A stretch of DNA of 41,137 nucleotides from assembly GCA_026397405.1 (NCBI GenBank), contig JAPLUW010000001.1, positions 1 through 41,137 on the forward strand, given 5' to 3'. The DNA comes from Candidatus Adlerbacteria bacterium. GTDB lineage: Bacteria; Patescibacteriota; Minisyncoccia; Phycocordibacterales; SBAW01. The notes under the pieces were generated by a model. The model did no database searches and was not told the DNA's origin. It was given only the letters and a program-made list of their open reading frames with translations. Positions 17,974 to 21,276 of this stretch are shown here, in pieces; position 1 is the stretch's first letter; the number at the start of each line of letters is the position of its first letter. The translations under genes were made by a program, and so were the position numbers.

Positions 17974-18453
17974 ATGCATACTAAAAAACTTATTTTGGCT
18001 ATTGTTCTCTTTTTTGTCATTATCATCGGACTTGCAGTACTTGCATTTGTCCCTTCGCACAATGCACACGCCCCAACGGGGAATACCCAAGCCACAACTA
18101 CCCCTACTACCGCAACAGAACCTGCGCACCTCGCCGACCTTATTGTAGTAACGTCGCCACTTCCCCACGCAACAGTTACATCGCCACTTGTGGTAACGGG
18201 CCAAGCTCGCGGCAATTGGTATTTTGAAGCCAGCGCGCCGGTTGAACTGCGTAACGCCGCGGGTGCCGTTATTGCACAGGGCCATGTAGAAGCACAGGGC
18301 GACTGGATGACCACCGAATATGTGCCCTTCACTGCAATACTTACGTTTCCTGCCCAAGCACCAGGGTCTGTCGGCATGTTAGTACTCAAAAACGACAACC
18401 CATCGGGCGACCCAGCACGCGAAAAAGAATTGGATATTCCGGTCCATTTTTAA
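17974..18453 (+). CDS. Secreted/anchored Gmad2 immunoglobulin-like domain protein
   Basis: 159 aa with an N-terminal TM/signal anchor, a Thr/Pro linker, then VTSPLPHATVTSPLVVTGQARGNWYFEASAPVELRNAAGAVIAQG...VPFTAILTF. Confidence 0.65.
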   Translation: MHTKKLILAIVLFFVIIIGLAVLAFVPSHNAHAPTGNTQATTTPTTATEPAHLADLIVVTSPLPHATVTSPLVVTGQARGNWYFEASAPVELRNAAGAVIAQGHVEAQGDWMTTEYVPFTAILTFPAQAPGSVGMLVLKNDNPSGDPAREKELDIPVHF

Positions 18454-19474
18454 TTCTTTTGCTCAGTTTATAGGCATTCCCATGCTTCAACATCCCCAGG
18501 TACGACTGCACCGTCGGGCTATCCTCTTCTAAGCCATACGTCCGTTTCAACATCCGCCGTTTTGTAGTAGTACGTAAAACTCTGTAATCTGGGAAATGCA
18601 CCCAGCCCAAAAAATCGACACCAGATGCAACAGTTTCTATAGAAACTTTATTTGGATGCAGTTGGAGGCGTAATTTGTTCCATAAAAAATCTTTAACTTT
18701 CAATAATATAGTTTCGAGATATTTTTTGTCGCGAGAAAGAAATACAAAATCATCCGCGTAGCGGATATAATATTTCACCTTAAGTTTATGCTTTATAAAC
18801 TGGTCGAACTCGTTCATGTAAATGTTTACCAACAGCTGGGAAGTTAGGTTGCCAAGCGGGAGTCCGACTTCAAGGTTCGACCTTGAAGTAAAGCTGGAAA
18901 TAACCGTTTTTAAGAGCCTAAGAATGTCTTGGTCGGAAATATATTTCTCGAGTATTGAAAATAGAATGGTGTGGTCAATGTTTGCGAAGAACTTTTTGAT
19001 GTCGCACTTCAACACCCATACCGTTTTGCTGTGATTGCGTGAACCTTTTCTCGCATATGCGAAAAAATGACACATTGCGCGATGAGTACCCCTTCTTACC
19101 CGAGAAGAATGCGAATCATAAATAAATTTTTTGTCGAAGAATGGATACAAAATTCTATGTATCGCATGATGCAGGAGTCTGTCACGTACAGATGCCTTGT
19201 GGATATCGCGGGGTTTTGGATCACTGATACGGAAATGATAATACGCGCCATGACGGTACGTTTTATTTTTCAAATCCCGGTGGAGTGCCATGACTTGATA
19301 TATCAAGCCATGCTGAAATTCCAGCACATCTTCTTTGTTGCGTTTGCCGTTTAAAAATTCTTTCCATGCAAGAAGCAAATTTTCGACGGAAATGATATCT
19401 TCATAGGTATGAGTAAAAACCGCTTTGAAACGAACCCCCCCCCAACAGATCTTGCCTATCTTGGAGTATATCAA
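18386..19474 (-). CDS. DGR-type reverse transcriptase
   Basis: 362 aa. It has the RT motifs KCDIKKFFANIDH, GLPLGNLTSQLLVNIYMNEFD (the DGR-typical [LI]GxxxSQ) and YIRYADDFVFL (YxDD). It lies adjacent to the TR/VR pair. Confidence 0.92.
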   Translation of the reverse strand: MIYSKIGKICWGGVRFKAVFTHTYEDIISVENLLLAWKEFLNGKRNKEDVLEFQHGLIYQVMALHRDLKNKTYRHGAYYHFRISDPKPRDIHKASVRDRLLHHAIHRILYPFFDKKFIYDSHSSRVRRGTHRAMCHFFAYARKGSRNHSKTVWVLKCDIKKFFANIDHTILFSILEKYISDQDILRLLKTVISSFTSRSNLEVGLPLGNLTSQLLVNIYMNEFDQFIKHKLKVKYYIRYADDFVFLSRDKKYLETILLKVKDFLWNKLRLQLHPNKVSIETVASGVDFLGWVHFPDYRVLRTTTKRRMLKRTYGLEEDSPTVQSYLGMLKHGNAYKLSKRIKNGPEYPILFRVLGRPMGCRF

Positions 19475-19832
19475 ACAGTCCTATCTGCTCTGGCATGAAT
19501 ATTATTCTACACTCCCAAAAGTCCATCGTTATACCGTCGGGGAGAAAATAGACACCCTTTTTATTGAAATAATAGAAGCCACATCAAGTGCGGCATTTCT
19601 CCCGCGTGGTGAAAAAACACCGTGGGTGCGCCTTGCCATACGCAAACTCGATACATTGAAGCTCCTATTAATGATACTTTGGGAAAGCAGTTCTCTTTCG
19701 GATAAAAAATACATCGCTCTTTCTGTAAAAATAGATGCGGTGGGAAAAATGTTCGGCGGATGGAACAGCCAAATCCTTCGACAAGCTCAAGACAAGCAAA
19801 ACTCCTCCGAGAAAAAGTCGGAGGAGAAATGA
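19425..19832 (+). CDS. avd: Avd-like four-helix-bundle protein (accessory variability determinant / 23S-IVS protein family)
   Basis: ILPILEYIKQSYLLWHEYYSTLPKVHRYTVGEKIDTLFIEIIE...KLDTLKLLLMILWE...KKYIALSVKIDAVGKMFGGW matches the four-helix-bundle family pattern. The start is TTG 19425, with alternatives TTG 19452 or 19461. Confidence 0.8.
   Translation: MKRTPPQQILPILEYIKQSYLLWHEYYSTLPKVHRYTVGEKIDTLFIEIIEATSSAAFLPRGEKTPWVRLAIRKLDTLKLLLMILWESSSLSDKKYIALSVKIDAVGKMFGGWNSQILRQAQDKQNSSEKKSEEK
19435..19443. repeat. C9 (plus) / G9 (minus) homopolymer inside the overlapping 5' ends of RT and avd
   Basis: Read directly as cgaaCCCCCCCCCaacag. It spans RT codons 11-14 (TGT TGG GGG GGG GTT) and avd codons 4-7 if avd starts at TTG 19425. 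Confidence 0.9.
19802..19826 (-). other. Perfect 9-bp stem-loop immediately 3' of TR on the minus strand
   Basis: On the minus strand, CTCCTCCGA-ctttttc-TCGGAGGAG is followed by TTTTGCTTG. It lies inside the last codons of avd on the plus strand. Confidence 0.5.
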
Positions 19833-19838
19833 AGAGAG

Positions 19839-19966
19839 TTGCGGGAACGAGGAACGCCGAGGCGCCATTGTCATTCCACTTGTTGCCGGGCTTGTCCCAA
19901 TACGTGTTGACCCAACTCCCGTCATCGTTACGGTTCGAGTTGAGGACGTTCGGGTTGCCGTCGGAA
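19839..19966 (-). repeat. DGR template repeat (TR)
   Basis: Gap-free 128-nt alignment with 20293..20420. All 17 differences fall at plus-strand T in this copy, which is A on the minus strand. Confidence 0.9.
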
Positions 19967-20200
19967 ACGTGCGCGACATCATCTCTATCACCATCCATCG
20001 AGTACTCTCTGGATTGAATCGCATTCGGCATCACAATGCCCCAAAGCCGCGCACCAAGTATCTTCAATTTTTGAAGTGTCTACATATGTCACACTATTCC
20101 AAACGCAGTTCGTCAGGAACACTCTGGACACATGGATACTGGCCTCGGCAGCGGGCAATCCAGTGTCGCCCGCGTATTCGCCTACTGCCACTTTCATTGT

Positions 20201-20239
20201 AACAAAGAAAAATCCGCCGCCCCAAAGCCGGGGCGGCGG
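20201..20239 (-). terminator. GC-rich hairpin plus U tract 45 nt downstream of the target-gene stop
   Basis: On the minus strand, CCGCCGCCCC-ggcttt-GGGGCGGCGG (10 bp, all GC) is followed by ATTTTTCTTTGTT. Confidence 0.6.
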
Positions 20240-20284
20240 AAACAAAGGTCATAGCGTCTAAGTACAAGAGCTGGAGGCCGACGC

Positions 20285-20986
20285 CTAAGCGCTTGCGGGA
20301 ACGAGGAACGCCGAGGCGCCATTGCCACCCCACTTGCAGCCGGGCTTGACCCAAGACGAGTCGACCCAACTCCCGTCAACGCCACGGTCCGAGATGAGGA
20401 CGCGCGGGTTGCCGCCGGAATCCTGGATGGTGTCGTAGAGCGCTACGATATACCAGAAGCCCATCTTCTCCATCTGCTTATCGGAGACCGACTCGCGGAT
20501 GCGTGGGATGACGCCCGCCAGCGGCTTGCCGTAGCCGTACTTCTCCGTGCCGAGCTTCTGCAAGGCCTCCGTGGTACGGTCGGCGTCGCGCTTTATTTCC
20601 TTGTGGGGAACCAGCGCGATTTTGTACTTCTGCCCGGCGACAAGGCGATGCTTGGCGTCATAGCTGTCGGGCTTCGTACTGGTGAGGCAGGACTTGGCGT
20701 AGTCACCGACGCGATACTTCGCGCCGAGGAGCCGTTCCACTTCTTGCCCACCCGTGAGGTCGAGCCCTTTGATGGTGAGCACGATGTGACCGTGCTCGTT
20801 GCGTTCGAAGACGGGCGGCGGAAGCGTCGGGCAACCAGCCTGCAGGAAGGCGGCGAGATTGTCGCGTGCCTTCTTGTCGTTGACCGGCAGCATGAGCTGT
20901 TCGGCATTGATGCCGACCTTATTCATGACACGGAAAAATTTAGCGGCCGCGTCGAGATTGTCACTGAGGGTTGCGATGTCGAGCAT
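20285..20986 (-). CDS. DGR target (variable) protein with an unrecognised N-terminal domain and a C-terminal variable region
   Basis: 233 aa. GGAGG lies 6 nt upstream of the ATG. The C-terminus ...DSGGNPRVLISDRGVDGSWVDSSWVKPGCKWGGNGASAFLVPASA is encoded by the VR. No N-terminal hydrophobic signal is visible. Confidence 0.85.
   Translation of the reverse strand: MLDIATLSDNLDAAAKFFRVMNKVGINAEQLMLPVNDKKARDNLAAFLQAGCPTLPPPVFERNEHGHIVLTIKGLDLTGGQEVERLLGAKYRVGDYAKSCLTSTKPDSYDAKHRLVAGQKYKIALVPHKEIKRDADRTTEALQKLGTEKYGYGKPLAGVIPRIRESVSDKQMEKMGFWYIVALYDTIQDSGGNPRVLISDRGVDGSWVDSSWVKPGCKWGGNGASAFLVPASA
20293..20420 (-). repeat. DGR variable repeat (VR)
   Basis: It occupies the last ~42 codons of the target ORF and ends 2 codons before the stop. 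See TR. Confidence 0.9.
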
Positions 20987-21276
20987 CGGATGCCTCCAAT
21001 TATTGTTGAAATGAGCTGTCCTGAGGCCATATATACGGTCCCATCAGCCATCATAAATTATACATGTAATTGGAGTTTCGTCAAGTTTTGTCGTCGCCAT
21101 ACCTTAAAACTATTTTTAATTTTCCAGTGGGACAAAACTTTCATTTTTAGGCAAAAATGAGGGGTAAAAAATGACTAATCTACAGCTTTTTTAGAGAAGT
21201 TGCGATTTGTGTGTTGCTTTTTATCAAAAAAGTTCTCGGATTTGCTATTCACAGCATAATTTAATGAAAAAAGGAG

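Follow-up and report, generated by a model that had tools for sequence, protein, structure and literature searches.

The paradigm of the diversity-generating retroelements (DGRs) is that of Bordetella phage BPP-1, in which the gene avd lies upstream of, and co-directional with, the template repeat (TR), and in which a 140-nt scaffold comprising primer strand, stop duplex, thumb ring and a stem-loop binding the reverse transcriptase (RT) is placed 3' of the TR. Structured RNAs have been described beside several bacterial RT genes, the motif RT-10 among them being the BPP-1 spacer between TR and RT gene (Weinberg et al. 2017, PMC5737381). A different arrangement prevails in the Candidate Phyla Radiation (CPR): in the gene-order survey of Wu et al. 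(2018, PMC5758913), 90% of the CPR DGRs belong to Architecture B3, TR-(avd)-RT with a reversed avd. Here, we describe a DGR found in a stretch of 41,137 nt from a Candidatus Adlerbacteria bacterium (assembly GCA_026397405.1, contig JAPLUW010000001.1, positions 1-41,137, forward strand; this whole stretch is called the window). The locus, with the order target gene/variable repeat (VR)-TR-(avd)-RT, is an Architecture B3 element of the chromosomal Patescibacteria (CPR) type; in contrast to BPP-1, its avd is reversed and stands between TR and RT. The first-pass annotation of this DNA had called the layout non-canonical, which is correct relative to BPP-1 but not for the lineage, where it is catalogued: order, orientation and host group (CPR) are those of the B3 scheme, and measured against that scheme the layout shows no difference. 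By itself, the inverted avd therefore adds nothing new. How B3 elements supply the scaffold placed 3' of the TR in BPP-1 has, to our knowledge, apparently not been described before; the survey classified gene order and apparently described no RNA elements, no overlap of avd with a terminator and no repeat tract. We regard it as probable (roughly 70%) that the locus is a B3 DGR with a self-contained TR RNA, a 5' leader serving as scaffold, and divergent avd and RT genes provided with a frame-setting tract.

The core of the element consists of the following features.

20285-20986, minus strand: target gene (open reading frame, ORF, of 233 amino acids), with the VR in its last codons.
20293-20420, minus strand: VR, 128 nt, at the 3' end of the target ORF.
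19839-19966, minus strand: TR, delimited by ungapped alignment with the VR.
19409-19832, plus strand: avd, recognised by Pfam bAvd and by fold; frame open from TTG 19425, 19452 or 19461, stop at 19830-19832.
18386-19474, minus strand: RT gene as assembled (from TTG 19474), extending to 19496 from the conserved ATG; RVT_1 match with 5e-27.

TR and VR differ by 19 mismatches over an ungapped block of 133 nt, and 17 of the 19 fall on TR adenines; the final 32 nt of both repeats are identical, with divergence beyond, and form a GC-rich 3' segment resembling an initiation of mutagenic homing (IMH) sequence. In the RT, GNLTSQ (residue 208) and YADD (residue 239) correspond to the motifs [LIV]GxxxSQ and YxDD that we take to be marks of the DGR RT clade. 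With its adenine-biased TR/VR pair, a VR at the 3' end of the target gene and this RT, the locus is a DGR. The target gene gave no match in Pfam or NCBIfam. G+C content is about 60% in the target region (20200-21000) and about 40% in RT and avd (18400-19800), at a window mean of 48.7%; the target gene may have a history different from that of the RT/avd module or be under some other compositional constraint.

As to avd, the ORF 19425-19832 matches Pfam bAvd (4e-10) with 40.5 bits, just above the cut-off of 40, and NCBIfam Avd (5e-12) with 46 bits, below the cut-off of 80. Its AlphaFold model (mean predicted local distance difference test score, pLDDT, 88.5) is a four-helix bundle, the first helix of which starts at residue 11 of the ORF. 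Compared with PDB structures, the model fits best to the Bordetella phage Avd 4dwl (template modelling score, TM, 0.89; root mean square deviation 1.5 A; about 111 alignment columns), while the Avd profile matched no sequence in the PDB. On the strength of the model, the plus-strand ORF is predicted to be an Avd with the four-helix fold known from BPP-1.

A scan of GTDB with one genome per species returned at least 477 confirmed relatives of this element, and the best 80 loci (L001-L080), labelled nearly all as Patescibacteria metagenome-assembled genomes, were used for comparison. The window Avd has 445 detectable homologues; the few with a named source come from Paceibacterota, Adlerbacteria, Giovannonibacteria or plain "bacterium". 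In the window, VR, TR and RT occupy the minus strand and avd the plus strand, at the coordinates given in the first-pass annotation, and its spacing holds as well: the avd stop (19830-19832) lies at a distance of 6 nt to the final base of the TR (19839), and 364 nt separate the TR from the start of RT at 19474. The annotation had proposed to look for the inverted avd in related genomes, naming an assembly inversion as the case that would speak against the layout. RT and avd lie on opposite strands with abutting or overlapping 5' ends in 79 of the 80 loci, the lone exception being due to a contig end. In about 72 loci of this set, the avd stop is succeeded by a TR, most often at a distance of 6 nt, and nearly every mismatch of these TRs with the VR is a T on the avd strand, equivalent to an A on the TR strand; the VR is found 430-560 nt beyond the TR. 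Logan contigs from seven runs of two studies, in which rare variants are lost and which end at the TR/VR repeat, agree fully with the window at RT, avd and TR, including a run of nine C discussed below, and in two of the runs, RT, avd and the beginning of the TR are joined on one contig of 12,992 nt. Since relatives and independent assemblies keep the same layout, we exclude an assembly inversion; the probability that the reversed avd stems from such an inversion or from a chimera, in favour of which we found nothing, is practically negligible, given the same arrangement in 79 of 80 independent genomes and one contig spanning RT, avd and the TR start in two runs.

Directly 3' of the TR, three features follow each other within the complement of the avd end.

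19827-19838, minus strand: 3' flank CTCTCTTCATTT, nearly invariant across loci; it holds the avd stop on the plus strand.
19802-19826, minus strand: stem-loop with a perfect 9-bp stem and a 7-nt loop; complement of the avd codons N-S-S-E-K-K-S-E-E.
19793-19801, minus strand: U-tract TTTTGCTTG, complement of the avd codons K-Q-N; probable 3' end of the TR RNA.

The perfect 9-bp hairpin with its U-run directly after the TR had been noticed at first pass and is present as described. It folds with -15.7 kcal/mol (z = -4.0), which none of 200 shuffles equalled, and together with TTTTGCTTG behind it gives a terminator-like match on the minus strand. On the TR strand, the same order recurs in every locus, namely the TR end CGCAA, CUCUCUUCAUUU, a stem of 7-12 bp and GAG-UUUUGUUUU; the stem-loop begins 12 nt after the TR, and the modal form in the family is a 9-bp stem with a tetraloop. 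The fold and covariation analysis that the annotation had recommended for this region, carried out on a plain MAFFT alignment of 74 loci with shuffles and slid pairings as controls, showed a covarying hairpin: 93.8% of the alignment cells are paired, seven of the nine pairs exhibit compensatory changes, and cells with a double change number 90 as compared to 28 +/- 5 in the shuffles, the slid controls reaching 37-67% pairing. The window itself departs from the family consensus by two compensatory substitutions, a change of P to S paired with one of G to E, by which the peptide is altered and the stem kept. The codons of the tail are frozen (AAA in 70/76, CAA in 71/73, AAC in 72/72, GAG in 56/56), whereas the same amino acids are coded in a mixed fashion elsewhere in avd. 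Likewise, the family consensus of the U-tract, GAG-UUUUGUUUU, is held at wobble positions, and a GC-rich stem followed by a U-rich tract is the pattern of an intrinsic terminator. As the comparison of sequences shows, stem-loop and U-tract are a conserved nucleic-acid element that is antisense in the last dozen avd codons.

The hairpin might instead be a by-product of a conserved C-terminal Avd peptide (KQNSP..GEK), devoid of any role at the nucleic-acid level, and the motif K-Q-N-S-P-(x)n-G-E-K-stop is indeed common to the homologues, the tail being conserved at the protein level in the 42 that were aligned. We consider this highly improbable: the compensatory changes maintain the pairing while altering the peptide, the sequence of the stem and the length of the loop vary freely, and the codons for K, Q, N and E have frozen wobble positions here but not in the rest of avd. 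The tail also lies outside the approximately 110 residues which superpose on BPP-1 Avd and forms a low-confidence part of the model. What is conserved in the avd tail is an RNA or DNA element and not the peptide. The end of avd and the putative terminator of the TR are the same bases read on opposite strands, a clear case of dual coding, which explains why a probably unstructured tail peptide of Avd is conserved. The sequence behind the hairpin on the plus strand is AAAUGAAGAGAG, leaving avd with no terminator of its own, and avd transcription would therefore run on antisense to TR and leader. The TR RNA and the avd mRNA would converge over the last ~40 nt of avd.

Putative Avd-binding stem-loops have been reported 3' of the TR in 207 of 278 DGRs, including those of CPR, the most frequent form being a tetraloop on a 9-bp stem (Handa et al., bioRxiv 10.1101/2023.10.23.563531). 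The hairpin described here matches this class in position and form, and by analogy we propose that it binds Avd. One of the two alternatives raised at first pass, in which the hairpin plays a part in the RT complex as a priming spacer structure, is compatible with this class as far as the hairpin is concerned; a spacer role of the 364 nt has no support in the comparative data.

On the other side of the TR, towards the target gene, the whole 320-nt interval between VR and TR is conserved across the family. It contains the following features.

20203-20240, minus strand: target-gene terminator, a 12-bp hairpin (10 of 12 pairs GC) at 20240-20213 plus a T-run, 52 nt after the VR.
20196-20204, minus strand: extended -10 element TGTTACAAT, overlapping the T-run of the terminator; probable transcription start at about 20189.
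19967-20189, minus strand: 5' leader (~215 nt) with three domains supported by covariation.
20141-20189, minus strand: leader Domain I (RNAalifold and covariation).
20083-20134, minus strand: leader Domain II (RNAalifold and covariation).
20055-20082, minus strand: invariant linker of the leader, containing AAAUGAAGA, which is complementary to the 3' flank CTCTCTTCATTT.
19969-20054, minus strand: leader Domain III with the helices P1 (20043-20054 / 19969-19980, 12 bp), P2 (20027-20040) and P3 (19993-20014).

The hairpin and T-run after the VR keep their position in the family consensus, and this hairpin may at the same time represent the GC-rich inverted repeat that is known to follow the IMH. 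In 59 of 62 loci, the conserved motif GG(Y)AGUAGG(Y)GAAUA is preceded, at a distance of 6-7 nt, by the end of a TAnnnT element, which carries a TG extension in 37 of them, and we infer that this conserved extended -10 element is the promoter of the TR RNA. The leader was folded with RNAalifold on 57 loci, and its pairing was re-counted on a sequence-only alignment against shuffles and slid controls. Of the 55 pairs in the fold, 43 show compensatory changes; 97.6% of the cells are paired, those with a double change amount to 529 versus 149 +/- 17 in shuffles, and the covariation score of 0.554 compares with at most 0.18 for the slid controls. As G-U pairs are frequent, we assign the structure to the minus, i.e. 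the TR, strand. These numbers show the leader to be a conserved RNA under structural selection on the TR strand. When window positions 19300-20400 were searched against Rfam 15 (E<=1), no family matched except for two hits of terminator type that are due to chance.

In 41 of 53 loci, P1 comes to its 3' end only 0-3 nt before the TR begins. P1 abutting the TR means that the latter is bracketed exactly, by P1 on one side and by the 3' flank with the stem-loop on the other. In BPP-1, a duplex at the upstream TR edge, the "cPRT Stop", stops cDNA synthesis (Handa et al., 10.1101/2023.10.23.563531), and by analogy, helix P1 is proposed to serve as such a stop. The most invariant segment of the leader, AAAUGAAGAUACUUGG, is complementary to the invariant TR end plus flank, GCAACUCUCUUCAUUU, with nine contiguous consensus pairs, and this leader-flank pairing may be taken as a lead for a priming duplex of the retron or BPP-1 kind. 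A duplex of CGCAACUC and GAGYUG (antisense to the Q-L codons of avd) was rejected as primer pairing, since Q is coded by CAA and by CAG with about the same frequency; likewise rejected was a local hairpin of the linker, CUUC-A6U-GAAG, the 5' arm of which varies without compensation. RNAduplex applied to whole segments in search of a primer strand was uninformative.

Two side observations concern the leader. Contigs of other organisms from the same freshwater metagenomes match the window only over 33 nt of the linker (20053-20085) and diverge on both sides, which suggests that a near-invariant linker is shared by many co-occurring DGRs. Several loci (L022, L033, L042, L040, L061 and others) carry insertions of 10-30 nt in the loops of P2 and P3 or at the P2-P3 junction; these spots in Domain III look like tolerated expansion sites of the leader RNA.

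Where the TR RNA ends can be approached through avd itself, the complement of which fills the 364 nt between TR and RT. Third-position entropy was calculated for 81 codon-aligned avd genes: throughout the avd body, four-fold sites reach about 1.8-2.0 bits and two-fold sites 0.8-1.0, i.e. they are saturated, and synonymous entropy collapses only in the last dozen codons and at a C-tract near the 5' end. The constraint ends exactly at the 3' end of the U-tract, and the adjoining stretch is variable in length and sequence. A structured RNA of ~140 nt between TR and RT, as in BPP-1, was not found (no Rfam match, no constraint past the U-tract). Taken together, a stem, nine conserved and mostly U residues and no constraint beyond lead us to infer that the TR RNA ends at the U-tract. 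Of the two alternatives put forward at first pass, a short, separately terminated TR transcript fits best, with hairpin and U-tract conserved at the nucleotide level and the constraint ending there. The idea that the antisense-avd stretch is a functional spacer is not supported, the synonymous sites being saturated and the covarying scaffold being situated 5' of the TR, and the suggestion that avd mRNA and a TR-RT transcript are mutually antisense over their whole length finds no support in the comparative data either, the avd body being saturated.

The competing explanation closest to BPP-1 assumes one long minus-strand RNA running from the TR through antisense avd into RT, with the 364 nt as spacer and the hairpin engaged in protein binding only. 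The precedent of BPP-1 speaks for it, and so do several observations that weigh against the self-contained TR RNA we prefer: the U-tract of the window, UUUUGCUUG (four U, then GCUUG), is weaker than the consensus, and no recognisable RT promoter was found in the subclade of the window, so that read-through from the TR promoter into RT is possible there. Further points against the reading we prefer are the weak support for the leader-flank pairing (90.0% as compared to 87.6 +/- 0.4% with partners shuffled), the outcome of a column-wise comparison of the TR 3' end (last 35 nt) with the leader and the 3' region, in which no conserved antiparallel run and no priming site was identified, and a search of RNA runs that found none with the locus. 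Nevertheless, we judge the long RNA unlikely. Four-fold sites at 1.8-2.0 bits across the avd body leave no conserved RNA element there, the constraint ends at the U-tract, and the covarying scaffold lies 5' of the TR. In addition, RT has an in-frame ATG of its own in 51 loci, most often 13 nt beyond the C/G tract at the avd/RT junction, and a -10-like element directly after this tract, present in 34 loci, ends 7 nt before the ATG in 25 of them.

The tract just mentioned is the second part of the reading with a self-contained TR RNA, and it is located as follows.

19435-19443, both strands: C9/G9 homopolymer inside the avd/RT 5' overlap; candidate hypermutable tract.

No other run of C or G in the 41-kb window reaches 7. 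A tract of C6 to C13 occurs at the avd/RT junction in 71 of the 80 loci, and a census of 587 kb of related loci located 62 of 65 C/G runs of at least 8 at this very junction. Among junctions without a C-tract, other repeats are encountered, (CAAT)7 in L055, (CAAC)3 in L047, (GA)6 in L040 and (CCG)3 in L016. The ATG-initiated avd frame is open up to the tract in 71/71 tract loci and matches the Avd body in 26 (37%), a share in agreement with one third (binomial p = 0.61), as compared to 7 of 9 loci in frame where the tract is missing (Fisher p = 0.03). Among six near-identical sequences, four have C9 and the others C8 and CCAC8. Strain variants of the window tract were looked for in metagenome contigs, and none was found; the same scan yielded only three extra sequences for the L030 group. 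In the 51 loci with an RT ATG beyond the tract, the latter lies outside the RT ORF, whereas in the subclade of the window it is inside both the avd and RT ORFs. A compensation of the RT promoter spacer by poly-G length was considered and rejected, the correlation being only -0.20 and the summed length varying no less than its parts.

In the window as assembled, TTG is the only in-frame start for avd (19425, 19452, 19461) as well as for RT (19474). The nearest relatives have conserved ATG starts corresponding to 19409 for avd and 19496 for RT; with C9, avd from ATG 19409 stops after 29 codons and RT from ATG 19496 after 31, both ATGs being one base out of frame because of C9 at 19435-19443. With C8 or C11, avd from ATG 19409 would be a protein of 140 or 141 amino acids, MSKNRFETNPPQQILPILEY..., beginning with MSKNRFETNPP like the in-frame loci L002 and L004, and with G8 or G11, RT from ATG 19496 would comprise 369 or 370 amino acids, MPEQIGLFDILQDRQDLLGGVRFKAVFTHTYEDIIS..., its N-terminus matching the same two. 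The TTG starts used at first pass would then be fallback starts, to which a frameshifted locus resorts; once in frame, avd and RT would overlap by ~87 nt. The overlap of 22 nt calculated earlier for a start at 19452 has to be corrected, as 19452-19474 amounts to 23 nt and the size hangs on an uncertain choice of start. For annotation in general, it follows that gene callers choose arbitrary TTG starts at these loci.

A phase-variable contingency locus is marked by a simple repeat in an ORF or just behind its start, the length of which sets the frame, and by frequent, reversible changes of this length within a population that turn expression on and off. The tract shows the former mark; its differences in length are those seen between genomes, and it is a candidate for such a locus. 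That it is no switch at all is a serious contender, to which we concede slightly less than even odds: the tract length might be miscounted by assemblers, transcriptional slippage or frameshifting might bridge it, or a weak TTG or GTG start downstream might be used. Homopolymers are error-prone, all seven runs give C9 (from contigs that cannot show minority lengths), the Avd ORF reaches helix 1 no earlier than residue 11, and 38 of the 45 out-of-frame loci keep an in-frame TTG, GTG or ATG before or at helix 1. Alternative starts being kept, the tract may modulate avd rather than abolish it. On the other hand, 62 of 65 long C/G runs are placed at this one spot, and (CAAT)7, (CAAC)3 and (GA)6 replace the tract exactly there; the in-frame share fits one third in tract loci and is 7/9 in tract-less ones, near-identical sequences differ at the tract (C8, C9, CCAC8), and a single-base change restores both conserved ATG starts in the window.

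Combining these lines, the reading we prefer can be outlined as follows. The TR RNA would be a discrete non-coding RNA of ~395 nt, starting at ~20189 from the extended -10 element after the target-gene terminator and ending at ~19795 at the hairpin/U-tract terminator, whereby the hairpin would double as terminator and Avd-binding stem-loop. The 5' leader would supply the scaffold for RT binding and priming, the role of the 3' spacer in BPP-1, and helix P1 would stop cDNA synthesis. avd and RT would be expressed divergently from their overlapping 5' ends, with the slippage-prone C/G tract setting the frame of the conserved ATG starts, both of which C9 would put out of frame. More far-reaching, and in our opinion tentative and rather doubtful at present, is the proposal that B3 elements possess a template RNA of ~0.4 kb in reverse order to BPP-1, with RT/Avd binding, priming and stop in the 215-nt 5' leader, as is the order in retrons, and the terminator antisense in the avd tail, combined with a hypermutable repeat as heritable and reversible throttle, the avd ATG being out of frame in about two thirds of the genomes. 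If it is true that the tract sets the frame of avd, and in the subclade of the window also that of RT, a mutagenic system would be restricted to part of the population, and bacteria with tiny genomes would have a simple restriction device at their disposal.

Downstream of the element, the plus strand encodes at 17974-18453 a small protein, hydrophobic in its N-terminal segment and provided with an immunoglobulin-like domain of the Gmad2 type (Pfam 7e-16). This gene is convergent with RT, and its 3' end overlaps the end of the RT ORF by 68 nt.

Compared with known systems, the locus shares with BPP-1 the four-helix bundle of Avd (TM 0.89 to 4dwl), a DGR-type RT and adenine mutagenesis, and, with regard to RNA, a stem-loop just 3' of the TR as well as a duplex at its upstream edge (Handa et al., 10.1101/2023.10.23.563531; PDB 8ub7). 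It differs in that only ~45 nt 3' of the TR are conserved while a 215-nt structured leader is found 5' of it, and in that both strands of P1, the helix at the TR edge, come from sequence upstream of the TR. The analysis of Handa et al. (10.1101/2023.10.23.563531) covered only 40 nt upstream and 100 nt downstream of the TR. With the RNA motifs associated with RT genes (PMC5737381), the leader has in common that a structured RNA is located next to an RT gene, but these motifs are among the Rfam 15 families that gave no match to positions 19300-20400. In the literature searched, we found no description of the 5' leader, of the dual coding of avd tail and terminator or of the junction repeat, an earlier description of the leader being possible, and no report linking DGRs to repeat-mediated switching. 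The 5' leader with P1 at the TR offers a concrete, testable RNA for the most numerous DGR class in nature.

The msr-msd RNA of retrons has its structured, protein-binding part 5' of the templating part, with a separate RT gene; the TR RNA proposed here would share this order. The DGR locus differs from retrons in that neither a branched priming guanosine nor terminal inverted repeats are in evidence, and DGR cDNA homes into the VR instead of being kept as multicopy single-stranded DNA (msDNA). Contingency loci based on poly-G/C or CAAT tracts are known from Neisseria, Haemophilus, Campylobacter and Bordetella (PMC2831843, PMC1891110). The junction tract differs from them in the weak alternative starts and in that its variation is known here from the comparison between genomes, but resembles them in being a homopolymer of 7-13 nt after a start codon, in a length that differs among close relatives, in the interchange of repeat types and in about one third of the loci being in frame.

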